Virus record (IMG/VR): IMGVR_UViG_2585427753_000009 | Length of the DNA: 13,562 nucleotides | From: a virus | Taxonomy: Duplodnaviria > Heunggongvirae > Uroviricota > Caudoviricetes | Reading direction: 5' to 3' (one strand) | Shown: in pieces, positions 1 to 13,562 of the stretch | How the letters are laid out: every line of letters starts with the position of its first letter | Position numbering within the stretch: the stretch's first letter is position 1 | Position numbers and translations under genes: made by a program | The notes under the pieces: model-generated | Seen by the model: the letters and a program-made list of their open reading frames with translations, nothing else | Database searches by the model: none | Told to the model about the DNA's origin: nothing

Positions 1-429
1 CTTTTGGGGAACCAGGATAGGCAAGCGGAAACGCCAGCGGCATGGCCAGAGCAGGGGAACACCGGCGGGTGTCAGCATATCGGCAAGTATGTGGCTCAAA
101 TAACCCAGCACCATACCCTGCAACGCATCAGCCGGAATGAACCAGCTTTCAGGAACCTTAAGGTAAAAGGTTGCCAGCAGCGCAAATACCGCCAGCAGAC
201 TGTGGGTAAAACCACGATGCCCAAAAGCGCGGGCGATCGGTTTTGATATCCACTTTAATCGCTGCCCAAGAAACGACTTTGGGTGATCGATGTCCGGTAA
301 CAAACACGTCAGGATTGCGGAAGGGACAATATGCCACCAGTCACCCTGTGCCAGCACGGGCGTCAGCTCGGCATTTTTGGCAAATACCGCACAAGCAATA
401 GAAAAGAGAAGGTGACCTTCCGCCGTCAT
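1..429 (-). CDS. ydjM: SOS-regulated inner membrane protein YdjM-like (5' part only; gene continues past window start)
   Basis: Minus-strand frame from ATG (complement of 427-429) translates MTAEGHLLFSIACAVFAKNAELTPVLAQGDWWHIVPSAILTCLLPDIDHPKSFLGQRL..., hydrophobic throughout and matching my recollection of E. coli YdjM. A LexA box sits immediately upstream. The + strand ORF 4-246 is antisense to it. Confidence 0.7.
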   Translation of the reverse strand, partial: MTAEGHLLFSIACAVFAKNAELTPVLAQGDWWHIVPSAILTCLLPDIDHPKSFLGQRLKWISKPIARAFGHRGFTHSLLAVFALLATFYLKVPESWFIPADALQGMVLGYLSHILADMLTPAGVPLLWPCRWRFRLPILVPQK

Positions 430-443
430 GATAAAACTCACTA

Positions 444-463
444 AACTGTCGATACGTACAGTA
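444..463. promoter_or_regulatory. LexA (SOS) box upstream of ydjM-like gene
   Basis: AACTGTCGATACGTACAGTA fits the CTGT-N8-ACAG palindrome of the LexA consensus and lies 15-35 nt upstream of the ydjM-like start codon. An additional CTGT/ACAG half-site follows at 476-479. Confidence 0.55.
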
Positions 464-644
464 TAGGGTTTTTATACAGTGCACGGAAGTGGTGACGGTG
501 TAACTCTTTCTCTTAAATTGGCGATTAATCCGTCAGTTGAATGCAAATTCAGATAAAGAACCAGGGTGATGCGCCGCGCGATAAATGCACTCTATCTTGT
601 GCGATAAATGGCATCCACGCGGCGTTTCATTATTTGAAAAAGAA

Positions 645-1217
645 TTACATTTCAGGTCGCGTTATGACAGTCCCAACAGGGTGGTAGCGGTAGATCGTTG
701 ACAGTCCAATATCATAGATAATTGCCAGCCGCTTTCTGTCATACCCTTTCTGGAGCAATCTTGCGATCTGCTCATGCTGCTCCTTCGTCAGTTTCGGGCG
801 ACGTCCTCCAACTCTCCCTTGTGCTCGCGCAGCAGCCAGTCCTGCCAGCGTGCGCTCAACTATCAGTTCACGCTCCATTTCTGCCAGTGCACCCATCATA
901 TGAAAAAAGAACCTTCCCATCGGAGTGCTGGTATCGATTGAATCCGTCAGACTGCGAAAATTGACACCTTTTGCGCGTAGCTCTTCTGTGAGAGCAATGA
1001 GGTGTTTCATTCTTCTACCCAACCGATCCAGCTTCCAGACCACCAATGTATCCCCTCTTTTAAGGCACTTTAAAGCGCGTTTCAGGCCTGGTCGTTCCGA
1101 CTTGGTTCCGCTCATTTTGTCCTCAAAAATCTGTTCACATCCTGCGCACATTAATGCATTGCGTTGCAAATCTGTGTTTTGGTCATTTGTTGACACACGT
1201 ATGTAGCCAATCAGCAT
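645..1217 (-). CDS. Serine DNA invertase (Hin/Gin/Pin/Cin family), copy 1
   Basis: Translation MLIGYIRVSTNDQNTDLQRNAL...VVWKLDRLGRRMKHL...GRRPKLTKEQHEQIARLLQKGYDRKRLAIIYDIGLSTIYRY has the N-terminal catalytic serine motif (YIRVSTNDQ) and a C-terminal helix-turn-helix like Hin/Gin. The ORF-track start at 1346 is a read-through extension; the real start is ATG at 1217, preceded by AAGGGAG with 7-nt spacing. Confidence 0.9.
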   Translation of the reverse strand: MLIGYIRVSTNDQNTDLQRNALMCAGCEQIFEDKMSGTKSERPGLKRALKCLKRGDTLVVWKLDRLGRRMKHLIALTEELRAKGVNFRSLTDSIDTSTPMGRFFFHMMGALAEMERELIVERTLAGLAAARAQGRVGGRRPKLTKEQHEQIARLLQKGYDRKRLAIIYDIGLSTIYRYHPVGTVITRPEM

Positions 1218-1271
1218 TAAAAATACTCCCTTTTGAGTGGTTAAAGTACTGAGATAATGTGGGGAGGATTT

Positions 1272-1297
1272 GAGAGATAAACGTTGGTTTGGGGGAA
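1272..1297 (+). other. Candidate hix/gix-like crossover site A (core AAACGTTGGTTT at 1279-1290)
   Basis: AAAC-N4-GTTT core resembling the hix/gix AAACC-NN-GGTTT pattern, about 60 bp upstream of invertase copy 1 and at the exact start of the sequence shared by all three fiber cassettes. The same core recurs in inverted orientation at 2894-2905 and 3366-3377. Confidence 0.55.
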
Positions 1298-1452
1298 GGC
1301 TCTGCATTGCCTGTTGGTGTACCGGTTCCGTGGCCCACCGCCACACCGCCAGAAGGCTGGTTAAAGTGCGACGGGCGCGCCTTTACAAAAGAACAATATC
1401 CTGTTCTGGCCAGAGCCTACCCGACCCTCCGTCTTCCCGATTTACGCGGTGA
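1279..1452 (+). repeat. 174-bp inverted repeat, arm A (perfect match to complement of 3204-3377)
   Basis: By-eye comparison: 1279-1452 equals the reverse complement of 3204-3377 with no mismatch; the first mismatch is at 1453 versus 3203. Encodes the conserved N-terminal 'collar' part of the cassettes. Confidence 0.8.
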
Positions 1453-1801
1453 GTTTATCCGTGGATGGGACGACGGGCGCAAAGTTGATACAGGACGTAA
1501 GTTGCTGTCCGCACAAGGGGCAACGCTGTTAAGAACAGCAATGCTGGATTATTATAACCAGGACACTACGGGAACCTCGGGGATAGTCGGCATGGGATTC
1601 AACAATGAAGATTCCATTACAGACCTTCGTGAGGGCAGCTTTAAAATGCCGGACGGGACAACATTCAGCGATCCTGTCGTGGCAATGTCAGACAATGGTA
1701 TGCAGGCTACTATTCTGACCTCTATCAGAAGCGGGTATGCGAAGGGTATCACTGTCAGACCCCGTAGCATTGCACTTAATTACATTGTGAGGGCAGTTTA
1801 A
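1289..1801 (+). CDS. Tail fiber C-terminal variable cassette A (no start codon; frame open from 1274)
   Basis: Translation (NVGL)GEGSALPVGVPVPWPTATPPEGWLKCDG...PDLRGEFIRGWDDGR...NYIVRAV: the conserved junction segment shared by P2 H, Mu S and P1 S fibers plus a tail-collar-like motif. The only in-frame start is TTG; an in-frame stop lies at 1271-1273, so it needs fusion to an upstream constant region. Its stop overlaps the start of the downstream tfa (TAATG). Confidence 0.8.
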   Translation: MGEGSALPVGVPVPWPTATPPEGWLKCDGRAFTKEQYPVLARAYPTLRLPDLRGEFIRGWDDGRKVDTGRKLLSAQGATLLRTAMLDYYNQDTTGTSGIVGMGFNNEDSITDLREGSFKMPDGTTFSDPVVAMSDNGMQATILTSIRSGYAKGITVRPRSIALNYIVRAV

Positions 1802-2415
1802 TGAGTAACACTGCAGTTCTGGATGAAAACGGTATCGCCACTGTAGCGGGCGATATCACTGTATATCACTATGACGAGGAAACCCGGGAATACACCTCAT
1901 CCTCTGTGGAGTATCTCGCCCTTGGGGTGGGTACTCCGGCACATTCGTGCGCCGATGCACCGCCGGAGGCAATTTCGGGTTACGTGGTTTGCCGGACTGC
2001 CACGCTGAACGGGTGGGAGCATGTGCCTGATCACCGCGGCGAGACGGTATACAGCACGGAGAACGGTAACCCTGTTCTGATTACCCAACCGGGTGATTAC
2101 CCGGCGGACACCACCACAAAACAGCCAGCCACGCCATGGGATACCTGGAACGGTGAGGCGTGGGTAACCGATACTGAACGGCAGCGAGCCGCAGAACTGG
2201 AGGTTGCCAGACAGCAACGCCAGCAACGGGTGAAACAGGCGATGGCGTCCGTCGATCTTATCAACCTCAAACTGCGTGCTGGTCGCAGTCTGACACCAGA
2301 AGAAACGGCAAAACTGAACGCCGTGCTGGATTATATCGACGAGCTGAACGCACTGGATATCAGCACGGCACCTGAAATCAGCTGGCCGGAAGCGCCACTG
2401 GCACTTGCCAGTTGA
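1801..2415 (+). CDS. Tail fiber assembly protein (Tfa; Mu U / P2 G family)
   Basis: 204 aa with VYHYDEETREY, HRGETVYSTENG, WNGEAWVTD and C-terminal APEISWPEAP motifs typical of caudoviral Tfa chaperones. Translationally coupled to cassette A. Confidence 0.85.
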   Translation: MSNTAVLDENGIATVAGDITVYHYDEETREYTSSSVEYLALGVGTPAHSCADAPPEAISGYVVCRTATLNGWEHVPDHRGETVYSTENGNPVLITQPGDYPADTTTKQPATPWDTWNGEAWVTDTERQRAAELEVARQQRQQRVKQAMASVDLINLKLRAGRSLTPEETAKLNAVLDYIDELNALDISTAPEISWPEAPLALAS

Positions 2416-2421
2416 ACGGTA

Positions 2422-2895
2422 TCACGCCGCCCTCACGATATAGTTAAACGCGATATTGCGGGGGCGGGTTATGTTAAAGAATGCTCCGTTTAATTCGGCT
2501 TTTGCGCGACTGTTTGTTCCACCCAGTATTGCGTACCACAAATAATCGCTACGGTAATTCCCCGCAAACACCTTATCGCCGCCATAGTCAATATTATTTC
2601 CGTTACTCATGTACGAGATATCAAGCGCAGAATCGTTATCGTCATGACCGCCGACCAGTGTACCTTTCTGCCATGAAAGCAACTTACGCCCCTCGTCAAT
2701 CTTGCGCCCGTCGTCCCATCCACGGATAAACTCACCGCGTAAATCGGGAAGACGGAGGGTCGGGTAGACTCTGGCCAGAACAGGATATTGTTCTTTGGTG
2801 AACGTAGCTCCGTTGCACTGTAACCAGCCTGCTGGCGGTGTGGCGGTGGGCCATGGAACCGGTACACCAACAGGCAATGCAGAGCCTTCCCCCAA
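2422..2895 (-). CDS. Tail fiber C-terminal variable cassette B (no start codon)
   Basis: GEGSALPVGVPVPWPTATPPAGWLQCNG...PDLRGEFIRGWDDGRKIDEG...NYIVRAA: same conserved N-terminal segment, divergent C-terminal domain. Begins at crossover site B, converges on tfa with a 6-nt gap, and has no tfa of its own. Confidence 0.75.
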   Translation of the reverse strand: MGEGSALPVGVPVPWPTATPPAGWLQCNGATFTKEQYPVLARVYPTLRLPDLRGEFIRGWDDGRKIDEGRKLLSWQKGTLVGGHDDNDSALDISYMSNGNNIDYGGDKVFAGNYRSDYLWYAILGGTNSRAKAELNGAFFNITRPRNIAFNYIVRAA

Positions 2896-2905
2896 ACCAA
2901 CGTTT
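2690..2905 (-). repeat. Cassette B copy of the conserved junction repeat (imperfect, mosaic relative to A and C)
   Basis: Reverse complement matches arm A for the first ~50 nt from the AAACGTTGG core, then diverges and matches again near GATTTACGCGGTGAGTTTATCCGTGGATGGGACGACGGGCGC. Confidence 0.6.
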
Positions 2906-2912
2906 TTATGCC
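2887..2912 (-). other. Candidate crossover site B (core at 2894-2905)
   Basis: Reverse complement AAACGTTGGTTTGGGGGAAGG. The stop codon of cassette C (2906-2908) sits inside this site, so cassettes C and B are in tandem. Confidence 0.5.
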
Positions 2913-3424
2913 GCCCTTACGATATAATTAAAGGCAATATTACGAGGACGGTTTTCATTAGCTGTTGGCACGACACGAGAGGCGTCGAATCCAAGGTCAT
3001 CGGTTTTGTCTATAGTAGTTGTGTTATTCGGCATTCTCGCTGATCGTGTTCCTGCATCGTAAAAAGCCCCTCTGATTGCATCAAAAGACATACCGATCCC
3101 GCCATCTGCGAATCCCTCAATATTTCTTATTGCATCCCCCTGTGAAGATAATAATTGTCGCCCGGCATCCACACCACGTCCGTCATCCCAGCCACGAATA
3201 AATTCACCGCGTAAATCGGGAAGACGGAGGGTCGGGTAGGCTCTGGCCAGAACAGGATATTGTTCTTTTGTAAAGGCGCGCCCGTCGCACTTTAACCAGC
3301 CTTCTGGCGGTGTGGCGGTGGGCCACGGAACCGGTACACCAACAGGCAATGCAGAGCCTTCCCCCAAACCAACGTTTTCGTTTTTATCCCTACCTATACC
3401 AACTCTGTATTTTTCACGAAACAA
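2906..3424 (-). CDS. Tail fiber C-terminal variable cassette C (no ATG; conserved part begins at about 3385)
   Basis: ...KNENVGLGEGSALPVGVPVPWPTATPPEGWLKCDGRAFTKEQYPVLARAYPTLRLPDLRGEFIRGWDDGRGVDAG...NYIVRAA. Its first ~57 codons are identical at DNA level to cassette A (inverted), then it diverges. The ORF-track start is a TTG within the invertase-2 upstream region. Confidence 0.75.
   Translation of the reverse strand: MFREKYRVGIGRDKNENVGLGEGSALPVGVPVPWPTATPPEGWLKCDGRAFTKEQYPVLARAYPTLRLPDLRGEFIRGWDDGRGVDAGRQLLSSQGDAIRNIEGFADGGIGMSFDAIRGAFYDAGTRSARMPNNTTTIDKTDDLGFDASRVVPTANENRPRNIAFNYIVRAA
3204..3377 (-). repeat. 174-bp inverted repeat, arm C (perfect match to complement of 1279-1452)
   Basis: See arm A. 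Confidence 0.8.
3359..3384 (-). other. Candidate crossover site C (core at 3366-3377)
   Basis: Reverse complement CGAAAACGTTGGTTTGGGGGAAGG, about 55 bp upstream of invertase copy 2; mirrors the site A / invertase 1 arrangement. Confidence 0.55.
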
Positions 3425-3438
3425 AGAGGATGTTTTTT

Positions 3439-4038
3439 ATGCAAATTGGCTATATTCGTGTGTCAACAAACGACCAGAACACGGATTTACAACGCAATGC
3501 ACTGAACTGCGCAGGATGTGAACTGATTTTTGAAGATAAAATCAGCGGAACGAAATCAACCAGACCGGGATTGAAAAAACTGCTCAGAACGCTATCAGAA
3601 GGAGATACGCTGGTTGTCTGGAAGCTGGACAGACTGGGCAGAAGTATGAAACACCTGATCACGCTTATTGAGGAATTGCGGGAAAAAGGTGTTAATTTCC
3701 GTAGTCTGACGGACAGCATTGACACGTCAACACCCATGGGGCGTTTCTTTTTTCACGTCATGGGGGCTTTAGCCGAAATGGAACGTGAATTAATTGTAGA
3801 GCGTACACTGGCCGGGCTGGCAGCAGCACGCGCACAAGGACGCATTGGCGGACGTCGCCCGAAGTTGACAAAAGAACAACACGAGCAAATAGCGAGGCTG
3901 ATTAAAAACGGTCATGACAGGAAACAACTGGCGATCATTTACGACATCGGCATATCGACGATTTATCGTTATCACCCTGTAGGCGATATACAGGCTGAAG
4001 AAACAACCAGACAGACTCAGGAAAATGAAAACCGCTAA
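3439..4038 (+). CDS. Serine DNA invertase (Hin/Gin/Pin/Cin family), copy 2
   Basis: MQIGYIRVSTNDQNTDLQRNALNCAGCELIFEDK...GRRPKLTKEQHEQIARLIKNGHDRKQLAIIYDIGISTIYRY. Start ATG at 3439 follows AGAGGA with 8-nt spacing; the ORF-track start at 3310 is a read-through extension. Closely similar to copy 1 but with a distinct, longer C-terminal tail. Confidence 0.9.
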   Translation: MQIGYIRVSTNDQNTDLQRNALNCAGCELIFEDKISGTKSTRPGLKKLLRTLSEGDTLVVWKLDRLGRSMKHLITLIEELREKGVNFRSLTDSIDTSTPMGRFFFHVMGALAEMERELIVERTLAGLAAARAQGRIGGRRPKLTKEQHEQIARLIKNGHDRKQLAIIYDIGISTIYRYHPVGDIQAEETTRQTQENENR

Positions 4039-4057
4039 TCTGACCATTAGCGGTTTT
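4031..4057. terminator. Bidirectional intrinsic terminator between convergent invertase 2 and gene U
   Basis: Perfect 9-bp stem ACCGCTAAT / ATTAGCGGT with 6-nt loop, followed by TTTT on the + strand and by a T-rich tract on the - strand. Confidence 0.5.
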
Positions 4058-4064
4058 GCGTTAA

Positions 4065-4559
4065 TCAAAACAGCCCTTTAACGGAGCTGGCCGCGCTGTT
4101 AAGAGATGATGTCACTTTATCTTTGAAGCCGGACAGCATATCGCTGAACGATGAGGATTGCAGGCGCTCCCGCAAATCCTCATCACAGCGTTCAAGAGTC
4201 AGTGAAAATTCTATCTTTTTCGCCTTACCATAGCGATCAAACTCGGAACGGGTCGTATTCGTTTCAGTCAGTACATACATGCCGTAAATCTGCCCGACAC
4301 CATCAATCAGAGGCCAGGGGCGTCCTGTATATGCCTGCGTGGTCAGCAACGAAAGCGACACTTCGCCACCTGTAATTTCAGGATAAAGCACGCCGGAAAG
4401 CACAATGCGATCATCACCTGCGCCGATATACTGCCAGCCTGCTGAACGGTTAACGCGTTCATTTTTCACATGCCGCCAGCTTTTGTTTTGCTGTAACTGC
4501 TGATGCGGCAGCGTGCGCAGCTCAAAAACAAACATGCCGTAGATCATCATCATGGCCAT
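4065..4559 (-). CDS. P2 gpU-like tail protein
   Basis: MAMMMIYGMFVFELRTLPHQQ...GVLYPEITGG...RPWPLIDGVGQIYGMYVL resembles P2 gpU as I recall it, and the gene sits directly after the tape measure gene. The true start is probably the third ATG (4553), which has proper GAGGAG spacing. Confidence 0.7.
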   Translation of the reverse strand: MAMMMIYGMFVFELRTLPHQQLQQNKSWRHVKNERVNRSAGWQYIGAGDDRIVLSGVLYPEITGGEVSLSLLTTQAYTGRPWPLIDGVGQIYGMYVLTETNTTRSEFDRYGKAKKIEFSLTLERCDEDLRERLQSSSFSDMLSGFKDKVTSSLNSAASSVKGLF

Positions 4560-4565
4560 GACTCC

Positions 4566-7382
4566 TCAATCTTTATCGTAAAAACTGCCACGCCCGGCAC
4601 GGGCGCGCCGTTCCATTTCTGCCCTAACCATTTCACCGACCAGTTTCGCCAGTTCGCGGGGATTCTGTGTAACAATGTTATGCAGATGAACATGAATTTC
4701 ACCGCCAAATCCGGAGGCAACAGGCTCCCGGTTACGGGAAGTTGCAGGAGCTGATGCCACTGGCGATCGTATGGCCTCCGCCACCGGGCGGGAGCTGGCC
4801 GCAACAACAGGGACCAGCGCCGGAGGCAGCGGAGCCGGAACCACGGGTGTGATATTAATTGCGGGGGCAGGCTTACTGACCTGCGCAATCTTCCGCTCCT
4901 GCCACTCCCCACGAACAGCAAGTGCGCGGGGCAGGTTCTTAAAGACAATATCGCCGGGGCCAATGCGTTTTTTCGTCTCATCAACCAGCTTACCTGTGTT
5001 ATCAGCAATTTTGCTGAGTCTGCGCAGCGTCCCGGTATTGCTGTCTGTGAGCGGTTTGTTGTCTTTGGGTTTATCACCTCCGGTGCCATTGCCATTTTCC
5101 ACAGGCTTCGGCGGATTGATTTTCGCCAGGTCCCCCTGAAGTAAGGCAACCTTGTCCTGAAGAATGGCCGCACGCTGTGCGTCTTCGATTTTCTTGCGCG
5201 CCCTTTCCGCTTCATCCGGAAGGACGCCAAGTTTTTCAAGTATCCACGCCAGCGTATCCAGTAGCATTTTTGCAGGTGTCAGAACAAGTTGTAACGCACC
5301 GCCAAGAACGTTACCGAATATCTCGCCAGCACTGGTACATTTATCCAGCGTTTCCTTGCTGGACTCCATCGGTGACAACAGCGATTTAAACCAGTTAAAC
5401 ACCTGGCTGATCCCGCTTCCGATTGCGTCAAAAACAGGACCAAACCGTTCAAAGGTTTCGCGCAACGGGGTCAGCCTTTCCATAATCCCGCTGAACACCC
5501 CGGCAAAAAATGCCCTGATGGGATCCCAGTATTTCCAGATGAGAACGGCAGCTCCGGCAAGCGCAGCCACGATAAGACCGACCGGACTGAACAACGCCCC
5601 GATAGCGCCCCCCAGTAACGAAACGGAACCCGTCACCATTCCCCATAGTGCTGGCAGGAGTCTGACAGCATTCATTGAACCGGTCAGGAGGGAAAAGCCA
5701 AGACGCAGTTTTGCCAGCGGGCCAGCAAGCACACCAATAGCCAGCGACAACGAGCCAACCGTTGCAGTCATTGCCAGCAACGCACCGCCTGCTATCAGTA
5801 GCTGGCGCGTCAGTACCGGATGGGCCTGCGCCAGCGAGGTGATTTTTTCAAGCACCCGCGTGAGCCACTGCGTGACAGAACGCAGCGGACCGTCAACCAG
5901 ATCACTGATGCGAATACGAAGACCTTCCCATGCGCTGTCGAGATTTTTCAGGTCCCCATCAAGATTATCGGCCATTACTTTTGCGACGCGATCGGCCTCT
6001 CCCCTTGCCCCCTGCAATTCTCTGGTCAGTTTTTGCAGCTCTCCTGAACCAGCCGCAGCAACAAGCGTCTGCAAACCAACGAACGCCTCTTCTCCGGCGA
6101 TGTCCTTGAAGAAGGAAACCTGGTCCACCTGTCCGTATTTTTGTGTCGCCTTATAGAGATCAAGCAGCACATCCTCCATCGGGCGCATTTTGCCTCTGGC
6201 GTCAGCAACTGACACCCCCAGCTCTTTCAGCGCATCAGCCGCAGCTTTTGGCGGTGATGCAAGGCGGGACAGACTTGCGCGCATGGCCGTACCAGCATCG
6301 CTTCCACGAAGACCATTATTGGCAAGCATCCCGGCCATGGCCGCCGCTTCTTCAAGACTGATACCAAGTTTTGCGGCAACCGGACCGGTATACTTCATGG
6401 TTTCGCCCAGCGCGCGTAAATCAGTATTGGTCCGGGTGAATGCCGCTGTCAGCGTATCGCCAACCCGGTCCATTTGATCGGCTGTCAGGTTGAACTGTGT
6501 GAGGATATTGGAGCCTATATCCGCCGTCTCGCCGAGTTCGACGCCACCTGCCAGCGCCATATTAAGAACACCGGGCAATGCGGCCTGAATGGCCTGCGGA
6601 GTAAAACCAGCCATTGCCAGAAAGCTCTGCCCACTGGCGGCATCACTCGCAGTAAACTGTGTTTCAGAGCCAAGTTTTAACGCCTGCTCACGCAGCGCCT
6701 TAAACTGCGGGCTGTTTTTGTCGATTCGCGTCAGTGCCTGAACGCGGGACATCTCTTTGCCGAACCCGATCGCAGGCTGCAAAAAACGCCCGGCAGCATA
6801 GCCGCCCGCCGCTGCCGCACCAATTGCCAGCGCACCACCTGTTTTCAGTTTTCCCGCGGTTTCCTGCGCGCGCGAATACCGCTCACGCGCCCGCGTTACA
6901 CGCGCAAGCGCCTGCCGTTCGCGTTCAAGCTGGTTGTTGTACTGTTCGGTGCGTCTGATGGCCTGCTGGATGGTGTTATCGCTGCCTGTCAGGGAAATGC
7001 CGTGGCGTTTCAGCTCTCCGCCAAGCTCCCGCATTTTCTGAATTTCCCGTGTGCGCGATTCATTCAGGCGTTCAAGCCGGGTGCTTAACTGCTGCATCAG
7101 CTTTTGTTGTTTTTCGCTGAGCACTGTACCCGTGCGTTGTAACTGATTAAGGGCGTTAAGCTGGCGTCGTGCTTTCACGATACCCGCATCCGCTTTACTG
7201 ACAGCGTCGCGGGCGCGCTCAAATGATCGCGCCTGACGCTCGAGATTTTTGATCGCCCCCTGCGTTCGCTGGATGGAGTCACCAAACTGCCCCATCAGGC
7301 GGCGGGCGTTTTCGGCAGGCCGGGTCAGCCTGTCAACGGCGCTGAAAGCGACCCGGATATCAAGAGTCTTCATTGTCTGCAT
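4566..7382 (-). CDS. Tail tape measure protein (P2 gpT-like)
   Basis: 938-aa ORF with long coiled-coil-type N-terminal region, central Gly/Ala-rich hydrophobic stretches and a Pro/Ala-rich C-terminal part, lying between the E/E' chaperone and U. Internal ORFs on both strands are alternate-frame artefacts. Confidence 0.85.
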   Translation of the reverse strand: MQTMKTLDIRVAFSAVDRLTRPAENARRLMGQFGDSIQRTQGAIKNLERQARSFERARDAVSKADAGIVKARRQLNALNQLQRTGTVLSEKQQKLMQQLSTRLERLNESRTREIQKMRELGGELKRHGISLTGSDNTIQQAIRRTEQYNNQLERERQALARVTRARERYSRAQETAGKLKTGGALAIGAAAAGGYAAGRFLQPAIGFGKEMSRVQALTRIDKNSPQFKALREQALKLGSETQFTASDAASGQSFLAMAGFTPQAIQAALPGVLNMALAGGVELGETADIGSNILTQFNLTADQMDRVGDTLTAAFTRTNTDLRALGETMKYTGPVAAKLGISLEEAAAMAGMLANNGLRGSDAGTAMRASLSRLASPPKAAADALKELGVSVADARGKMRPMEDVLLDLYKATQKYGQVDQVSFFKDIAGEEAFVGLQTLVAAAGSGELQKLTRELQGARGEADRVAKVMADNLDGDLKNLDSAWEGLRIRISDLVDGPLRSVTQWLTRVLEKITSLAQAHPVLTRQLLIAGGALLAMTATVGSLSLAIGVLAGPLAKLRLGFSLLTGSMNAVRLLPALWGMVTGSVSLLGGAIGALFSPVGLIVAALAGAAVLIWKYWDPIRAFFAGVFSGIMERLTPLRETFERFGPVFDAIGSGISQVFNWFKSLLSPMESSKETLDKCTSAGEIFGNVLGGALQLVLTPAKMLLDTLAWILEKLGVLPDEAERARKKIEDAQRAAILQDKVALLQGDLAKINPPKPVENGNGTGGDKPKDNKPLTDSNTGTLRRLSKIADNTGKLVDETKKRIGPGDIVFKNLPRALAVRGEWQERKIAQVSKPAPAINITPVVPAPLPPALVPVVAASSRPVAEAIRSPVASAPATSRNREPVASGFGGEIHVHLHNIVTQNPRELAKLVGEMVRAEMERRARAGRGSFYDKD

Positions 7383-7628
7383 TCCCGCTGCGAAGTGCCG
7401 CCCGCTCGCGCCAGCTAACCACTTCGCCGGGCGTCATCATGAAGATTTCGGCGGGCGACCAGTTAAAAATGGCGGCAATATCCGCCACCAGATCTTCGAT
7501 GTGCTCAAAGCACACCAGGGTGATTACGCTGCCGTCTCCTGCACGCTCTTCGCGCCAGAGTCTGGCTCGCTCATAAAATTTACAGCCACAGCGCACAACC
7601 GAATAAAATCGCGTGACGACATTTTTTT
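7360..7628 (-). CDS. E' extension: -1 frame continuation of E, predicted to be made as an E+E' fusion by frameshift
   Basis: The -1 frame opens at the A7 run (minus-strand TTAAAAAAATG, + coordinates 7621-7630) where a TAA in that frame overlaps the run, stays open to 7360 and overlaps the tape measure start. This is the arrangement of P2 E/E' and lambda G/GT. Confidence 0.5.
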
Positions 7629-7898
7629 AATCATCACTTCATCCAGTCGTGGCGAGGTCACGCGAGGCAACAGCGTGAACATGGTATCCGCTTTCAGATT
7701 CAGCACATCAGACAGCGACAGACCACGCAGGGATCCCGCCTGCTCAATAGCCCCGGTGATCTCCACATATGTGATTTTTTCGCCACCACGCTCAATTGGC
7801 CGGGAAAGTTTTACACCACGTTCGACAGCCATATCCTCACCTGCCGTCACATCATCCGCTACGGTGTTATTCCGGGTTTCAGTATCGATATCTTTCAT
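7524..7898 (-). CDS. Tail assembly chaperone (P2 gpE-like)
   Basis: 124-aa ORF immediately upstream of the tape measure gene, with a strong RBS (AAGGAG, 7-nt spacer) and an A7 slippery run in its 3' part. Confidence 0.65.
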   Translation of the reverse strand: MKDIDTETRNNTVADDVTAGEDMAVERGVKLSRPIERGGEKITYVEITGAIEQAGSLRGLSLSDVLNLKADTMFTLLPRVTSPRLDEVMIKKMSSRDFIRLCAVAVNFMSEPDSGAKSVQETAA

Positions 7899-7953
7899 CA
7901 GTTGTCTCCTTTTCAGTCAGAGGCGACGCACTGCGCCGCCTGCATATTACTTA

Positions 7954-8466
7954 TCAGCCAAGCCCAAGCGCGGAACGAATGCGGTCAGGCACAATGTCCT
8001 TGCCGTCCTTCCGGTAGATGTGGTTCAACAGGTCGATTTCCAACAGCGGGCGATCGTTAACGCTCAGCTTGTAGTAGGTGTTTTTGACAGCGTAAGTGTG
8101 TGATGTGGCTTCGCCCTGTTTGGCCTCCCCCATATCAATTTCCGTCACACGCCCGCGCATCTCGATTTCATACAGATCGCTTTCTGCATCGGTGTAGTAT
8201 TCACCCGCAAAACGCAGCAGCGTGCCGTCAATCGTGCCGCCATATTTAAGGAACAGCGCACGAACAGCTCCCCCCATAACAAAACTCGCATCAAGCGCGG
8301 AGTCGTCCAGACCGAGATCAATACTTACCGCCCCCATCATGCCACCACCACGATAGCTGTCGGTTTTGCGCGTCAGTTTGGGCGGCGTGACGGACGTCAC
8401 CTTACCCACTTCGTTTTCACCATCCACAAACAGCGTAAAAAAGCGAAGATGTTTTGGTACAGCCAT
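7954..8466 (-). CDS. Tail tube protein (P2 FII-like)
   Basis: 170 aa with KVTSVTPPKLTRKTDSYRGGGMMGAVSIDLGLDD, matching the P2 FII tube motif as I recall it (KLTRK...YRGxGM...DLGLDD). Start overlaps the sheath stop (ATGA). Confidence 0.85.
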   Translation of the reverse strand: MAVPKHLRFFTLFVDGENEVGKVTSVTPPKLTRKTDSYRGGGMMGAVSIDLGLDDSALDASFVMGGAVRALFLKYGGTIDGTLLRFAGEYYTDAESDLYEIEMRGRVTEIDMGEAKQGEATSHTYAVKNTYYKLSVNDRPLLEIDLLNHIYRKDGKDIVPDRIRSALGLG

Positions 8467-9650
8467 CAGGCACCTCCCAGCACCGCAAATGCGGGACCAA
8501 AGAATTCATCAGTAAACGACTGGTAAAGCTCCATGTCTTCCAGCGGGGGAACAGGCGTATATTTGTAGCGAATACGCACGCGCCCCTGACGTAAATTCGT
8601 GGTGCCGTTATCCACCACGTCATACCAGCACGACGCCCCAATCAGTTTCCCGGCAGTAACCAGTGAATCCAGTTTTGCCCTGATGGCACTGATAACATCT
8701 TTCACGTTCGCAGGCGTCAGTGGACTGTCGATGGTTTCAAACTGCGCTTCCGCAATTGAATCAGCCAGCACCTGTGCGGTTCGGGTATACACCTCAAAGA
8801 TGTAGGCGTTCGTTTCCGGTGTGCGGTTGCCCCAGAAGCGGAACCCGTTGCGACGAATAATGGTCGTGATTTCTTTGTTGTTGAGGCTATTGGCATCGCT
8901 GTCTTCGGCCTGCAACGACCAGAACACATGCCTGGACATCCCCAGCACATTTTTAACCGGAACGTTGGACAGTGATTTGTGCCATCCCTGCTCATGGTCA
9001 ATGTACGCACGAAGGCCGCACGCATAGGCAGGCGCGGGGAACGTTTCGTTTTTGCCACTTTTCGGGTTGTAGGCGATGAAGTCCGGCCATAAGAGCATCA
9101 CCTCACGTTCGTTGAATTTCTGGCGGTAGGTAATCGCCTCAGCCATCGTGTTACAGCCGTGACATGAGGCATACACAAACGCGCGCAGTTTACCCGCAAT
9201 CACGCACAGGGATTTTGTCACCGCCTCCGTGTCCAGCTCCGGCGCGGCCAGAATACGCGGACGGTATCCGATGCTTTCATCCTGCTCTGCAACAAGCAGC
9301 GCATACATCCCCGTATAGCTGCCGTCAGATTCAGAACCACCGATAACCAGTTGATCCTGCGTCTTTCCGTCTTCTTCTTTGTGTTCAGCCACGCGAACGA
9401 CGATCACCTTTGTGCTCACCTGGTCTGCGATGGCCTTAAGCGCACGATAAAGCGTCCCCGTTGTCCCGCATTTTCCCAGCACGTCATTGACGCGGGTCAG
9501 CAGTGTGGGCTTGTTCAGCGGGAACAGCTTCGCGTCCGCATCATCCGCCGTTGCCACGATACCGATAACGCTGGAATCAACATCGTTAATCGCTGTTACC
9601 AGGTCGGTATTTTCCGTAACACGGGCACCATGAAAACGAGTTTCACTCAT
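8466..9650 (-). CDS. Contractile tail sheath protein (P2 FI-like)
   Basis: 394 aa with FPLNKP, KLRAFVYASCHGC, LLWPDF, GWHKSLSNV, LIRRNGFRFWGNRT, YTRTAQVLAD and YTPVPPLED motifs characteristic of the P2 FI sheath family. Confidence 0.88.
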   Translation of the reverse strand: MSETRFHGARVTENTDLVTAINDVDSSVIGIVATADDADAKLFPLNKPTLLTRVNDVLGKCGTTGTLYRALKAIADQVSTKVIVVRVAEHKEEDGKTQDQLVIGGSESDGSYTGMYALLVAEQDESIGYRPRILAAPELDTEAVTKSLCVIAGKLRAFVYASCHGCNTMAEAITYRQKFNEREVMLLWPDFIAYNPKSGKNETFPAPAYACGLRAYIDHEQGWHKSLSNVPVKNVLGMSRHVFWSLQAEDSDANSLNNKEITTIIRRNGFRFWGNRTPETNAYIFEVYTRTAQVLADSIAEAQFETIDSPLTPANVKDVISAIRAKLDSLVTAGKLIGASCWYDVVDNGTTNLRQGRVRIRYKYTPVPPLEDMELYQSFTDEFFGPAFAVLGGA

Positions 9651-9807
9651 AGCTTTAGCCCCTTGTATCCGTTAAATGATTCGGCAACAATCATCACCCA
9701 CCACGCGCGTAATCTCACCCCTGTGCCGTTCTCCCGATCCGGCGACAACAAAAAGCAGTAACCCCCTCCGCACGCACATGCGACCATGCCGCACAGGGAG
9801 GGAACAG

Positions 9808-10917
9808 ATGACCGATACCACCATGCAATTGCTCAGTCAGGGCACAGACCCCGTGAAAATGCCGGATTTTGATATTCTCGCGGAGGGTAAAACGCTGTCA
9901 GGCGTGGCAGAGCGCCTGATGAGCCTGTCACTGACCGACAACCGGGGATTTGACGCGGACCAGCTCACCATCACGCTGGATGATGCGGATTGTCAGTTGC
10001 AGCTACCGCCACGGGGCGCGCGCCTGACGGTTCTCATTGGCTGGAAAGGAGAACCGCTGACAGAAAAAGGCACTTACATTGTTGATGAAATCGCTCACGA
10101 AGGACCGCCGGACAGGCTGACTGTTTCAGCCAGAAGCGCAGATTTTCGGGATGAATTTAACGTTAAACGTGAGGTGTCCTGGCATGATGTGACCGTTGAG
10201 CGTGTGGTATCCGCCATCGCTCATCGGTATGGTCTGAAACCGCAAATCAGCGAAATGCTGATGGATATCGAAATCGACCACGCCGACCAGACCGAAGAAA
10301 GCGACATGTCCTTCCTTACGCGCATGGCGGAAATGCTGGGCGCAATCACCACGGTAAAAAGCGGTAATCTGTTATTCATTATGCCAGGCGGTGGCGTGAA
10401 CGCACAGGGCCAGCCGTTGCCATCGTTCGCCATCACGCGCAGCAGTGGCGATCGCCATCAGTTCCGCATTGCTGACCGCGAAGCGTATACGGGGGTACGC
10501 GCTTACTGGCTTGATCTTAATTACGGGAAAAAGAAAAAAGTCAGCGTGAAACACCGCAAACCGCCAAAACCCAAAAAGGAGAAAAGCAGCAGCCGTGAAG
10601 GTGATTATATGGAAGGCGCGGAAGGCAATGTGTTTGTGTTACGCAAGACTTATCAGAACGAGCAGGCAGCAAGACGCGCAGCGGCGGCAAAGTGGCAGCA
10701 GCTACAACGCGGAGCCGCATCATTCTCCATCACGCTGGCATGTGGTCGTGCAGAACTCTACCCCGAAATGCATGGCACGGTAACAGGATTTAAAAGCGAG
10801 ATTGATAATCAGGACTGGATTATTGCAAAAGCCGAGCACACCATCGATAACAGCGGCTTTACCACGCAGCTTGAGCTTGAGGCAAAAATCTCGGAATGGA
10901 TAGCAGAAACAGAGTGA
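9808..10917 (+). CDS. P2 gpD-like tail protein (late control gene D family)
   Basis: Start at ATG 9808 after AGGGAGG. N-terminus LSLTDNRGFDADQLTITLDD...RGARLTVLIGWKGEPLTEKGTYIVDEI matches the gpD-family pattern; sits immediately upstream of the Ogr-like gene as in P2. Contains an unusual Lys-rich low-complexity insert. Confidence 0.72.
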   Translation: MTDTTMQLLSQGTDPVKMPDFDILAEGKTLSGVAERLMSLSLTDNRGFDADQLTITLDDADCQLQLPPRGARLTVLIGWKGEPLTEKGTYIVDEIAHEGPPDRLTVSARSADFRDEFNVKREVSWHDVTVERVVSAIAHRYGLKPQISEMLMDIEIDHADQTEESDMSFLTRMAEMLGAITTVKSGNLLFIMPGGGVNAQGQPLPSFAITRSSGDRHQFRIADREAYTGVRAYWLDLNYGKKKKVSVKHRKPPKPKKEKSSSREGDYMEGAEGNVFVLRKTYQNEQAARRAAAAKWQQLQRGAASFSITLACGRAELYPEMHGTVTGFKSEIDNQDWIIAKAEHTIDNSGFTTQLELEAKISEWIAETE

Positions 10918-10959
10918 GCAACTTAGAATAGCAGCAGCACCACGTTAAGGGAGGTCGCT

Positions 10960-11220
10960 ATGTTCCGTTGTCCGCTTTGTGGCGCATCTGCCCGTATCCG
11001 CACCAGTCGTCCGGAAAATGATTCAAACACCGTGCGGCAAAAGTATTACCAGTGTAACAACCTGGAATGCGGCGTATGCTTCTCAACACTGGAAGCTTTC
11101 CATAAATTCACATCAAAACACACCTCCGGCGTTCACTCTTCAGAAGGTATCCCGTGGCATGAGCTGCCAGCTTCACACAGGGGAAACAATCAGATGAGTT
11201 TGCCTTTACCTCAGAATTAA
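10960..11220 (+). CDS. ogr: Ogr/Delta-family zinc-finger late transcription activator
   Basis: MFRCPLCGASARIRTSRPENDSNTVRQKYYQCNNLECGVCFSTLEAFHKF... has the Cys-x2-Cys ... Cys-x4-Cys zinc finger and the MF-CPLC / RTSR / Y-QC-N signature of P2 Ogr. Strong RBS AAGGGAGG. Confidence 0.85.
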   Translation: MFRCPLCGASARIRTSRPENDSNTVRQKYYQCNNLECGVCFSTLEAFHKFTSKHTSGVHSSEGIPWHELPASHRGNNQMSLPLPQN

Positions 11221-11411
11221 CAGGCAGAATTGCCGGAGTAACAAAAAAGCGATAGATTACGCGCGGGTGCCTTTCGGCTGATGGTCGGAGGGAATACCCG
11301 AAGGCCAGATGTGGAAAGGCCCCGGAAAACATTTCTGTTTAACCGAGGCCCTAACATATCTACCTTAAGCAAGTGATAGGTTAGCGCCTCTCCAACAAAG
11401 GAGCAAGCGCT

Positions 11412-11552
11412 ATGTCGCAAAAATCGCTTACGGCCATCACATTCTGCGTGACGGTAATCCTCATCATCTGGATGCTACACGGTTCGCTGTGTGAAATACG
11501 GATGAGCTTCTGGGGAGCGGAGTTTGCGGCGTTCTTACAGTGTAAGCAGTAA
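11412..11552 (+). CDS. Hok-family type I toxin (46 aa); not in the ORF track because it is under 60 aa
   Basis: MSQKSLTAITFCVTVILIIWMLHGSLCEIRMSFWGAEFAAFLQCKQ: N-terminal transmembrane helix, the Hok hallmark S-L-C-E-[IL]-R motif and a conserved C-terminal AAFLxCK, closest to HokA as I recall it. AAGGAG RBS with 8-nt spacing; long structured leader upstream; hairpin and terminator downstream. Confidence 0.7.
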   Translation: MSQKSLTAITFCVTVILIIWMLHGSLCEIRMSFWGAEFAAFLQCKQ

Positions 11553-11640
11553 GGAAACCGCGACGGGGGAGCAATCCCCCGTCAATCGGTTGCTAAGGTT
11601 GGCTGAAGTGGCACCCTATCTCACAGACATGAACAACAAA

Positions 11641-11672
11641 CCCGCAGCGTAAGAACTGCGGGTTTTCTTTTT
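11641..11672. terminator. Intrinsic terminator after the hok-like gene (probably bidirectional, also serving the small minus-strand ORF)
   Basis: CCCGCAG-(8 nt loop)-CTGCGGG followed by TTTTCTTTTT on the + strand; the complement is followed by TTTGTTGTT. A second perfect 9-bp hairpin (GACGGGGGA...TCCCCCGTC) lies at about 11569-11590, reminiscent of the hok mRNA 3' fold-back element. Confidence 0.6.
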
Positions 11673-11740
11673 GGAACTATCACTAGCTAGTGTACCGTTA
11701 ACGGCACATAATGCTCGCACAACAAACCTGTTAAAAGAGA

Positions 11741-12022
11741 TTACTCAGCATTCTCCTGCTTCCATTGCCGGATCATTTCATCGGTAACATCACCCTCATA
11801 ACATACCACGTCATACCCTCCATTACGGCTATATGCACTGCGTCCACCACATCTACTACCATTCCTTGCATGATTATAAGGACACGCACAATTGCCTGGA
11901 TAAGATTCAATGGATTCTTTAATTATTTCTTTTTTGATCTGAGCATCAGACTTTCCTGTTGCTGCATATCCGCTAAAAGATACTAAACAAAGGCAGATTG
12001 CCATTAATAAACCACATCGCAT
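11741..12022 (-). CDS. Small secreted Cys-rich protein of unknown function (about 93 aa with signal peptide)
   Basis: From the internal ATG (12022): MRCGLLMAICLCLVSFSGYA|ATGKSDAQIKK... has a canonical signal peptide and four Cys in the mature part. AT-rich. The 131-aa ORF-track version has a non-credible N-terminal extension; exact start is uncertain because the RBS is weak. Confidence 0.5.
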   Translation of the reverse strand: MRCGLLMAICLCLVSFSGYAATGKSDAQIKKEIIKESIESYPGNCACPYNHARNGSRCGGRSAYSRNGGYDVVCYEGDVTDEMIRQWKQENAE

Positions 12023-12259
12023 ACCGATACACTCTATTACTAACCAATCATAGCCCACATCATAAAATCGAGATGAGGAGTACAATACCTTTAACAAGAA
12101 GGTGTCATAACGATAATATGTCGTGCAATTCATCAAAAAAAAGATCTATATCAAAGAGATAGAACTCTTATCAGTGCTTCAGACATCGGCATTCGAGGCA
12201 GCAGAAAAACAGTAAATCTGACGAATTTGCCTTTTCCCAAGATGTTGTCAGATTAAAAA

Positions 12260-12420
12260 GATAGATTAGCGCAGGTACCTGTTGGTGGATTGCAGGAGGA
12301 AAAATGAAGTCGAGTGGAAAAATCCCAGAAAAATTTTTGTTTAACAGAGGTCCTGGTTCACTATGCGAAATACGGAGGAGCTGCAGAAGAATTCTGCTTC
12401 ATCCTTAGAGTTTAAACAGC
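12260..12420 (+). pseudogene. Degraded second hok-like locus (leader retained, toxin ORF internally deleted and frameshifted)
   Basis: 12260-12357 aligns by eye with the leader of the intact locus (11251-11348), e.g. GATAGATTA..., GGAAA..CC..GAAAA..TTT.TGTTTAAC.GAGG.CC. 12358-12378 GGTTCACTATGCGAAATACGG then matches the toxin's GGTTCGCTGTGTGAAATACGG (codons for GSLCEIR), but the RBS, start codon and transmembrane-helix codons are missing and the remainder is out of frame. Confidence 0.45.
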
Positions 12421-12492
12421 ACGTGCACTACCATTGTTTCTGCATATCGCCACACCATCGCCACTCAACCGCCATTGCACAAAATACAAATA

Positions 12493-12519
12493 CAAAAAAA
12501 CCACCCGAAGGTGGTTTCA
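12493..12519 (-). terminator. Intrinsic terminator of the glyW-cysT-leuZ tRNA operon
   Basis: Minus-strand AAACCACC-TTCG-GGTGGTTT followed by TTTTTTTG, about 40 nt past the tRNA-Leu 3' end. Confidence 0.7.
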
Positions 12520-12559
12520 CGACACTGCTTATTGCTTTGATTTTATTCTTATCTTTCCC

Positions 12560-12646
12560 ATGGTACCCGGAGCGGGACTTGAACCCGCACAGCGCGAACG
12601 CCGAGGGATTTTAAATCCCTTGTGTCTACCGATTCCACCATCCGGG
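12560..12646 (-). tRNA. leuZ: tRNA-Leu (anticodon UAA)
   Basis: Reverse complement reads GCCCGGATGGTGGAATCGGTAGACACAAGGGATTTAAAATCCC...GGGTTCAAGTCCCGCTCCGGGTACCA: 87 nt, long variable arm, encoded CCA. Confidence 0.93.
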
Positions 12647-12658
12647 CTCGGGAAGAAA

Positions 12659-12732
12659 GTGGAGGCGCGTTCCGGAGTCGAACCGGACTAGACGGATTTG
12701 CAATCCGCTACATAACCGCTTTGTTAACGCGC
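12659..12732 (-). tRNA. cysT: tRNA-Cys (anticodon GCA)
   Basis: Reverse complement GGCGCGTTAACAAAGCGGTTATGTAGCGGATTGCAAATCCGTCTAGTCCGGTTCGACTCCGGAACGCGCCTCCA, 74 nt. Confidence 0.93.
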
Positions 12733-12786
12733 CAAATTCTTCAGGCCTTTCAGCCAGACATCCGCTGCCGCCGATGTCTTTTAAAC

Positions 12787-12862
<76 letters not shown>

Positions 12863-13013
12863 ATTCATCAAGCAATCAGTTAATCACTTGATTTTATTAT
12901 CGTCTGGCAATCAGTGCCGCCGTTCGATGCGTTGCATTCTACTTACCTGGCGCGATGAGTCAACGATATTTTTCACCACTTTTGATCGTTTGCTGAAAAT
13001 TGCGCCGAAACGA

Positions 13014-13562
13014 TCACTGATCAAGCAAATCTGCACGCGCAGCGCTCAAATATTGCAACATTGACCACAGAGTCAGTACCGCAGCCACAAAGAAAAGTGC
13101 AATACCGGCGTACTCAACCCAAATGTTCGGACGCCACAGCAGCCAGGCTAACGCCACCATCTGGGCAGTGGTTTTCACTTTCCCAATCCAGGAGACAGCC
13201 ACGCTACTGCGTTTACCCAACTCCGCCATCCATTCGCGTAGCGCAGAAATAATAATTTCACGGGCGATCATCGTTGCTGCCGGTAAGGTCACCCACCAGC
13301 TGTGGTAATGCTCGGTTACCAGCACCATGGCGATAGCCACGAGAACTTTATCTGCGACAGGGTCAAGGAAAGCACCAAACCGGGTACTCTGATTCCAGCG
13401 GCGTGCCAGAAAACCATCGAACCAGTCAGTCACCGCCGCGACGCAGAAAATGAGCGCGGCGGCAAACGGCGACCAGGTGACAGGCAAATAAAAGACCAAT
13501 ACAAAGAATGGGATAAGGATGACACGGAACAGTGTAAGCAACGTAGGGATATTAAATTGCAT
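13014..13562 (-). CDS. pgsA: CDP-diacylglycerol--glycerol-3-phosphate 3-phosphatidyltransferase (phosphatidylglycerophosphate synthase)
   Basis: Complete 182-aa [75 protein letters not shown]..., with the CDP-alcohol phosphatidyltransferase motif D-x2-DG-x2-AR; matches E. coli PgsA as I recall it, in the expected position next to glyW-cysT-leuZ. Confidence 0.95.

Follow-up and report, generated by a model that had tools for sequence, protein, structure and literature searches.

The locus described here raises the question of whether two DNA invertase genes that bracket three tail-fibre cassettes, with no constant fibre gene between or beside them, represent a genuine genetic arrangement. The stretch that was analysed (13,562 nt, referred to below as the window) is an exact match to the start of draft contig JORF01000015.1 of assembly GCA_000713045.1, its position 1 being the end of that draft contig, and it is equally found at 100% as positions 17373..3812 of locus L016. 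An earlier note on this DNA had offered two readings of the array, namely that it is the recombinant junction of an exchange between two separate fibre-inversion systems, or that it serves as a silent reservoir of cassettes.

Invertases, crossover sites and cassettes of the window

The features of the window are compiled in Table 1; those described in the earlier note were all recovered at the positions it gave. Both invertase genes are intact and of Gin/Pin type and, as had been proposed, they are related to each other, with 159 of 184 residues identical between the proteins (86%) and gene 5' regions that are 80% alike. Each product contains Resolvase and HTH_7 domains (PF00239 and PF02796, with E values of about 1e-51 and 1e-12) together with the motif IGYIRVSTNDQ, which places both in the Hin/Gin/Cin/Pin family, and inv1 is matched over its full length by the Mu Gin structures 4M6F and 3UJ3 (E = 2e-93). 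A shorter gene call for inv1, of 121 aa, is unique to this contig.

Table 1. Features of the window, with coordinates, strand and the basis on which each was assigned
Feature	Coordinates	Strand	Basis
ydjM 5' part, first 143 codons	1..430	-	PF04307 YdjM gene call
Right end of Mu-like transposable prophage, beginning with TG at 567	567..644	-	recurring matches from 560-567
inv1, Gin-type serine DNA invertase of Mu-like prophage (WP_000904922-type), 190 aa	645..1217	-	Resolvase + HTH_7
Crossover site A, 26 bp, core TT at 1284-1285	1272..1297	+	direct reading and 33-bp repeat
Interval holding the switch from Mu-like to P2-type alleles, probable chimeric join	1284..1678	.	allele comparison
Fibre C-terminal cassette A, start-less, without its own constant part	1289..1801	+	Pfam Phage Tail Collar domain
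tfa (tail-fibre assembly) gene of cassette A	1801..2415	+	Caudo_TAP, E = 3.5e-28
Cassette B (2422-2895) and crossover site B (2887-2912)	2422..2912	-	Pfam Collar domain; site repeat
Cassette C (2906-3424) and crossover site C (3359-3384)	2906..3424	-	Pfam Collar domain; site repeat
inv2, P2-like prophage invertase (WP_001375851-type), 199 aa	3439..4038	+	Resolvase + HTH_7
P2-like tail operon: U, tape measure T, E/E', FII tube, FI sheath	4065..9650	-	ORFs, Pfam, RefSeq of collinear prophages
P2-like D gene (right-end region 9808..11552)	9808-10917	+	gene calls, Pfam, RefSeq annotation
ogr (same region)	10960-11220	+	gene calls, Pfam, RefSeq annotation
Hok/Gef-like ORF at P2-like prophage right end (same region)	11412-11552	+	gene calls, Pfam, RefSeq
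Chromosomal flank: tRNA-Leu, tRNA-Cys, tRNA-Gly, pgsA	12561..13562	-	ARAGORN, Rfam, annotation of L002

The junction segment that the cassettes had been said to share was found to be an exact 33-bp sequence present three times (1279-1311 on the plus strand, 2873-2905 and 3345-3377 on the minus strand), with no copy expected by chance in 200 shuffles, and these repeats extend as arms of 231-278 nt that are 85-91% alike. They can be read as pix/gix-like sites of 26 bp (TTCCCCCAAACC AA CGTTT...) with a common 2-bp core (TT/AA), which border the segment in inverted orientation, site A on the plus strand and sites B and C on the minus strand. Site A has an outer half-site of Mu type, and all cassettes have its core and inner half-site in common. 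The distance to the start codon of the neighbouring invertase is 54 bp for both site A and site C. The three start-less cassettes and the single tfa gene of the original description were all recovered by domain searches. Reading of the open reading frames across the window revealed no constant fibre 5' part in frame with any of the sites, again as had been stated, so that the hallmark of a host-range switch, a constant 5' part abutting a border site, is missing from the window. Such a part is present in intact relatives of both halves of the window, from which it may be inferred that the constant fibre genes lie elsewhere in this genome. Apart from the three tRNAs, an Rfam search over the window returned nothing.

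Two prophage types and the module they share

The left part of the window derives from a Mu-like prophage. In B2 E. coli (e.g. ATCC 11775), ydjM and the region preceding it agree with positions 1-566 at 100% identity. Positions 567-1283 are the terminal 717 bp, on the right-hand side, of a Mu-like transposable prophage that is integrated approximately 137 bp ahead of ydjM. Many genomes have matches that begin at 560-567, at 99% identity or more, beside different chromosomal genes (such as rstB, irp2, dgcQ and malE), and the copy in 83972, which splits rstB, encodes a MuA-like transposase, a MuB-like ATPase, Gam and Mor; variable chromosomal flanks and the gene set expected of a Mu-like prophage are thus both present. 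In the intact Mu-like prophages L003 and L004 inv1 occupies the same position, and intact elements elsewhere show the order inv1, cassette A with tfa, cassette X and constant fibre gene.

From position 1284, that is from the core of site A, the window follows base for base a P2-like (P88-type) prophage located at leuZ/pgsA. The intact P2-like prophage L008, at the same leuZ site, shows no mismatch to the window from 1284 to 12767, and L009 shows two. The gene order typical of this group (H, tfa, cassettes and invertase, followed by U-T-E-FII-FI on the opposite strand, D-ogr and attR at the tRNA) is collinear with the window from 1281/1284, inv2 has the same position in the intact prophages, and cassette A is fused there to the constant part of H. 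An inversion of the FI-U tail operon relative to D-ogr was considered and rejected, as this order is native to the P2-like group. The nearest phage records are invertases of P88/Xuanwuvirus, with 79-82% identity. P2-like prophages that are otherwise identical (0 mismatches) were observed with the A-tfa-B segment in both orientations.

The two prophage types share the A-tfa module at 99% identity or more, and their crossover cores are identical. Between 659 and 1678 the window and the Mu-like copy of 83972 show no difference, and the first polymorphisms that tell the Mu-like from the P2-like version occur at 1679/1681, where the window agrees with P2 (L008); each of the six positions at which the A-tfa copies differ (1679, 1681, 2073, 2188, 2394 and 2449) is of P2 type in the window. 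The switch from one prophage to the other must therefore fall within 1284-1678, a stretch of 395 bp over which the closest relatives of both prophages do not differ. A crossover inside A-tfa, suggested by polymorphisms relative to DA33135, was dropped because the closer proxies L008 and L009 match the window from the site core onwards; this identity sets the interval at 1284-1678, within which site-specific and homologous exchange are not separable.

Alternative contigs and the nature of the join

The same assembly contains a second version of the left flank. Contig JORF01000060.1 (1,847 nt) matches window positions 1-1302 without a difference and stops at the very ydjM base where the window does. 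On the far side of the site, however, comes cassette X, which in 83972 is the second cassette of the Mu-like prophage, followed by the 3' end of a tfa gene with the Mu-type alleles 2394A and 2449T. This structure indicates that inv1 is still attached to its own Mu-like segment, so that the adjacency of inv1 and cassette A represents the other flip state of that segment. The same pair recurs in the sister assembly JORG as two small contigs, L027 (inv1 joined to X) and L033 (inv1 joined to A), both of which end at window position 71; L033 has no mismatch to the window and ends 140 nt into cassette A. In two further sister assemblies, JORM and JONF, contigs of 190-200 kb have the order X-inv1-ydjM-tcyP-cedA-katE. 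Contigs with inv1 next to A and with inv1 next to X thus co-occur within single assemblies.

Taken together, these comparisons suggest that the two-invertase layout is probably a chimeric contig path, most likely absent from the chromosome, and we infer that the join is computational rather than biological. The isolate would carry two separate and ordinary tail-fibre inversion systems, one in a Mu-like prophage between hxpB and ydjM (constant fibre gene, a segment with X, tfa and A, inv1, attR) and the other in a P2-like (P88-type) prophage beside leuZ (constant H, then A with tfa, B and C, then inv2). As each segment would flip in culture, reads would back several adjacencies. The path taken by the assembler would have started in the tail genes of the P2-like prophage, followed inv2, C, B, tfa and A and, inside the 395-bp stretch of A, would have passed into the Mu-like flank of inv1, attR and ydjM, which corresponds to the flip state of the Mu-like segment in which inv1 adjoins A. 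The product would be a contig with two invertases and no constant fibre gene, the constant gene of each system residing elsewhere in the genome. With the alternative contig and the 395-bp join, the situation is essentially the one named in the earlier note as fatal to a real two-invertase locus, an assembly collapse of two separate loci. Its suggestion of an exchange between two fibre-inversion systems survives in part, in that two systems are indeed joined, Mu-like to the left of 1284-1285 and P2-like to the right, but the contig of the same assembly in which inv1 adjoins X speaks against the exchange itself.

It has to be considered, on the other hand, that junctions of this type do arise biologically. 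Among 5,426 complete genomes, inv1 and inv2 were found within 3.5 kb of each other in a single one, 4/0 (NZ_CP023849.1), in which the same two invertase types bracket C, A-tfa and B. This genome also contains the reciprocal structure that the earlier note had predicted, an invertase-free junction at which the constant fibre genes of P2 and Mu type are opposed across a cassette segment. The event took place in the serS-aroA interval (about 45 kb), its crossovers map within at most 25 bp around the site core, and un-inverted relatives are known for both prophages; the inter-prophage inversion in 4/0 is genuine, with both crossovers mapped to the 26-bp sites. It differs from the window in being part of a complete genome with no contradicting alternative contig, and in its location, given that the corresponding event in the window would span ydjM-leuZ. 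The existence of the same junction type in 4/0 counts against a chimera, as does the relative orientation of ydjM and pgsA, which is that of a viable inversion and not that of a lethal 180-kb deletion, and which a random chimera would yield only half the time. A minority subpopulation with a real inversion may also exist. No two-invertase layout was detected in the phage collection, where an apparent 'Hin1/Hin2' pair of a P1-like phage turned out to be one gene split by annotation. The ydjM/Mu junction was seen in none of the 5,426 complete genomes.

That the contig reflects real molecules, with the Mu-like and P2-like invertases acting on each other's sites across about 180 kb, is unlikely. 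Under such a scenario the ydjM-leuZ region would form a very large stretch of chromosome able to invert back and forth, and a mixed culture would contain it in two states, one of which has the two-invertase junction. In the version of this idea in which the invertases recombine the sites of both prophages in trans, so that the culture is a mixture of chromosome isomers that were both assembled, the presence in one assembly of inv1 joined to X and of inv1 joined to A and onwards to inv2 finds a direct explanation; the sites share core and inner half-site exactly, the flip states of identical P2-like prophages suggest an active system, and in 4/0 two prophages have demonstrably undergone exchange at the sites. 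However, ordinary inversion of the Mu-like segment by itself would lead one to expect inv1 next to A, as the JORG contig illustrates, and 4/0 is the only one of the 5,426 complete genomes with such a product. Efficient inversion by enzymes of the Hin family requires a defined synapse and an enhancer in cis, which in this family depends on Fis and is located within the invertase gene's 5' part, for which reason recombination over 180 kb should be rare. We consider such a mixed state quite improbable.

Somewhat less credible still is a real and fixed chromosomal inversion of about 180 kb (ydjM to yecA), in which the inv1-proximal site of the Mu-like prophage would have recombined with the constant-H/A site of the P2-like prophage, either by invertase or by RecA within the shared cassette A, leaving inv1, A with tfa, B, C and inv2 at one junction and two constant fibre genes face to face at the other. 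The geometry is compatible with this event, since in K-12 the genes ydjM and pgsA lie on opposite strands (plus and minus, respectively), whereas the window has the two on the minus strand; P2 identity starts exactly at the site core, and 4/0 documents the same type of event with both junctions and with crossovers restricted to at most 25 bp about the core. Nevertheless, an inv1 gene relocated beside the P2 segment could not adjoin X in that chromosome, so the contig JORF01000060.1, which joins inv1 to X and a Mu-type tfa, is impossible in a clonal inverted chromosome. Parental adjacencies would be absent after an inter-prophage inversion, and yet inv1 next to X with the Mu-type tfa occurs in this very assembly; moreover, the window's junction was found in no other assembly. 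A natural, stand-alone two-invertase reservoir of silent cassettes, inherited as such, is highly implausible despite the intactness of both invertase reading frames and all three sites, because the halves are the ends of two different and well-populated prophage types, each with its own constant fibre gene, and because neither the phage collection nor 5,425 of the 5,426 complete genomes contain the layout, the single case being an inversion product; the reservoir reading of the earlier note is accordingly left without support.

Known inversion systems and implications

The Mu-like half closely resembles the G/Gin system of Mu (and likewise P1 C/Cin and e14 P/Pin) in its 190-aa invertase, in 26-bp sites with an AAACC-NN-GGTTT type centre, in alternative fibre C-termini with tfa, in the placement of the invertase gene directly outside the segment, and in the position of inv1 at the right end of a transposable prophage. 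The difference is that in the window as assembled a second invertase stands on the side opposite the first, whereas related intact prophages have a normal constant gene there. The P2-like half, with one site on the plus strand and two on the minus strand, is comparable to p15B Min and to the three-inverted-repeat switch of an EPEC P2-like prophage; its sites permit A-B and A-C flips and hence three alternative C-termini for one fibre gene. The EPEC switch has been reported with the same architecture and four coexisting variants (Goldberg et al. 2014, PMC4272514). The intact prophages L008 and L009 do not differ from it, and it is only the window contig that lacks the constant H part.

Recombination between prophages has been linked to chromosomal inversions, and according to the statement in PMC6379469 that cites Iguchi et al. 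2006, those of O157 have been ascribed to homologous recombination between lambdoid prophages. A likeness exists in that co-resident prophages supply the inverted homologies, but here recombination would involve the invertible fibre segments of two prophages, one Mu-like and the other P2-like. Furthermore, it has been described that Cin acts at secondary crossover sites and that invertases occasionally use non-cognate sites (Arber interview, PMC4270481).

For the interpretation of draft genomes, the window provides a note of caution, as co-resident prophages with flipping and nearly identical fibre cassettes tangle short-read assembly graphs and may thereby generate a seemingly exotic locus. 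A search of the same assembly for alternative contigs with a common flank is a test that can be transferred to other cases. From a biological perspective, it is noteworthy that prophages of the Mu-like and the P2-like type with identical crossover cores and a common A-tfa module reside together in one E. coli chromosome, and the inversion in 4/0 suggests that host chromosomes can now and then be rearranged by phage invertases, with both prophages losing their mobility as a result.

Gene content of the window

An earlier note had described two Hin/Gin/Pin-type invertase genes (inv1 and inv2) bracketing three start-less fibre C-terminal cassettes (A, B and C), and its account was accurate in every detail, the invertases, Collar cassettes, tail-fibre assembly gene (tfa) and site repeats all being confirmed. 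The two invertases share 86% identity, inv1 matches Mu Gin structures (E = 2e-93), and the crossover core lies inside an exact 33-bp sequence present in three copies in the window, where none is expected by chance. Positions 1-566, comprising ydjM and its upstream region, are 100% identical to B2 E. coli.

Features of the window, with two loci of strain 4/0
Feature	Position	Strand	Remarks
ydjM, first 143 codons	1-430	minus
inv1	645-1217	minus	Resolvase + HTH_7 domains
Cassette A	1289-1801	plus	Collar domain
tfa	1801-2415	plus	after cassette A
Cassette B	2422-2895	minus	Collar domain
Cassette C	2906-3424	minus	Collar domain
inv2	3439-4038	plus	Resolvase + HTH_7 domains
P2-like tail genes U, T, E, FII, FI	right of inv2	minus
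D, ogr, hok-like ORF, then tRNA-Leu, tRNA-Cys, tRNA-Gly, then pgsA	rightmost part
4/0 locus L005	11946-15339		NZ_CP023849.1
4/0 locus L007	30167-34072		NZ_CP023849.1

Across window 1801-3424 a tfa chaperone gene comes after cassette A only; B, C and the second cassette of the Mu-like prophage (X) lack one, and in a fusion of the fibre gene with B or C the single tfa is in the wrong orientation. Between ogr and the right end of the prophage is a Hok/Gef-like ORF of 46 aa (11412-11552), a position it also has in related P2-like prophages, and no Sok-type RNA was detected at the Rfam gathering score.

The Mu-like and P2-like halves

From position 567 the window matches, at 99% identity or higher, the end of an element that adjoins unrelated genes (rstB, irp2, dgcQ, malE) in many genomes; in strain 83972 rstB is interrupted by this element, whose genes include those for a MuA-like transposase and a MuB-like ATPase as well as Gam, Mor and head and tail genes of Mu type. 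Its ends beside unrelated genes, together with this gene set, indicate a Mu-like transposable prophage of which inv1 is the Gin, and intact members show the order end, inv1, A tfa, and X fused to the constant fibre gene. A Mu-like prophage inserted between hxpB and ydjM occurs in the draft assemblies JORF, JORG, JORM and JONF and in up to 9 further contigs grouped with them; it is absent from all 5,426 complete E. coli genomes, so the lineage lacks a closed reference. In three complete genomes (NZ_CM135823.1, NZ_CP135691.1 and NZ_CP107137.1; H110-H112) the IS66-family element ISEc23 splits the Mu-like inv1, which would be expected to lock that prophage's fibre segment.

Rightward of 1281/1284 the window is collinear with intact P2-like (P88-type) prophages, in which a full-length H fibre gene has cassette A as its C-terminus. 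Two such prophages of related strains, sharing the leuZ integration site, show 0 mismatches across 1284-12767 (L008) and 2 across the whole of 1284-13562 (L009). Other P2-like copies carry A-tfa-B in the flipped orientation with 0 mismatches, suggesting that this switch is active in nature. Both halves of the window are ordinary representatives of known types: a Mu G/Gin-type switch on the left and, on the right, a three-site P2-like switch of the sort shown in EPEC to yield four coexisting variants (PMC4272514).

In a draft contig of the same P2-like prophage (L013 14959-22808; CYBG01000002.1, GCA_001285145.1) only a tfa 3' fragment follows inv2-C-B, and is succeeded by a truncated DUF6645 gene, R-S-V-W-J-I-H-tfa reversed and a second copy of B, a pattern produced either by an internal inversion that also duplicated sequence or by an assembly artefact around the invertible region. 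In JORG, a sister assembly of the window's own (L017 13996-14485; JORG01000101.1), the cassette adjacent to inv2 begins with the site and conserved head but has B as its body, and C is apparently absent; either a deletion between sites B and C, which are direct repeats, or a chimeric end of the contig could account for this.

The Mu-like copy of 83972 is identical to the window across 659-1678 and departs from it at 1679, 1681, 2073, 2188, 2394 and 2449; given the P2-like identity from 1284, the A-tfa modules of the two prophage types are near-identical and their site cores identical. Up to the core of site A (1284-1285) the window is Mu-like; to the right of it each discriminating position has the P2-type allele, so the switch falls somewhere in 1284-1678. 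That P88-like and Mu-like (phiE255-like) prophages in ST131 exchange homologous fibre cassettes has been noted in a preprint (10.1101/2022.05.07.487787).

Origin of the two-invertase junction

The 13,562 nt of the window open draft contig JORF01000015.1 (GCA_000713045.1), starting at its very end, and a look-up of the 190-aa inv1 protein retrieved a second contig of this assembly, JORF01000060.1 (1,847 nt), which equals window 1-1302 exactly and ends at the identical ydjM base. Past the site it continues into X of the 83972-type prophage and then a tfa 3' end with the Mu-type alleles 2394A and 2449T, so that in this isolate inv1 remains joined to the segment belonging to the Mu-like prophage, in its inv1/X flip state; the adjacency inv1/A is the opposite flip state of the same segment. 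Both states occur in the sister assembly JORG as small contigs that stop at window position 71, the inv1/A contig reaching 140 nt into A and showing 0 mismatches against the window, and contigs of 190-200 kb in JORM and JONF have the order X-inv1-ydjM-tcyP-cedA-katE. The inv1 gene call is 121 aa in JORF01000015.1 versus the full 190 aa in JORF01000060.1 (L028 631-1203), a gene-calling inconsistency, as the sequence is the same.

The two-invertase junction is probably a chimeric contig. On the simplest account, the assembler would have output alternative paths around the flipping region, and that of contig 15 would have run through a 395-bp stretch of A without differences between the closest relatives of the two prophages, so that the P2-type A-tfa-B-C-inv2 path became linked to the flank of the Mu-like prophage.

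A real inter-prophage inversion in a minority of cells, with the window as minority isomer, seems improbable. Chromosomal inversions between prophages have an established precedent (PMC6379469), as has the action of Cin on secondary sites (PMC4270481). K-12 has ydjM at 1.81 Mb (plus strand) and pgsA at 1.99 Mb (minus strand), whereas both are on the minus strand in the window, so the contig, if right, is the junction of a ~180-kb inversion. Its orientation is of the viable type, which a random chimera would yield only half the time, and strain 4/0 shows a comparable event in a complete genome; a fixed inversion is nevertheless very improbable, as it is contradicted by JORF01000060.1 in the same assembly: a clonal chromosome with inv1 moved beside the P2 segment could not also have inv1/X. 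That two invertases and their cassettes form a natural reservoir element is hardly credible; a small remainder of the probability is assigned to none of these readings. With a chimeric contig preferred, and pending reads, the two-invertase layout of the window is best not regarded as a real feature.

Probable inversion between prophages in strain 4/0

Using a padded query of the ends of both invertase genes only, inv1 and inv2 were found at most 3.5 kb apart in one of 5,426 complete genomes, that of E. coli 4/0 (NZ_CP023849.1), in the order serS - P2 tail - inv2 / C / A tfa / B / inv1 - aroA. A reciprocal structure of the kind described in the earlier note, with two constant fibre genes and no invertase, exists in this genome, where the P2 constant H gene lies opposite the Mu constant fibre gene. 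Relatives carry un-inverted versions of both prophages, and both crossovers, compared with un-inverted proxies, are confined to at most 25 bp including the core of the 26-bp site, which favours invertase-catalysed exchange over general homologous recombination. This sequence comparison suggests that 4/0 has undergone an invertase-mediated inversion between two prophages, and it is this case that deserves follow-up.
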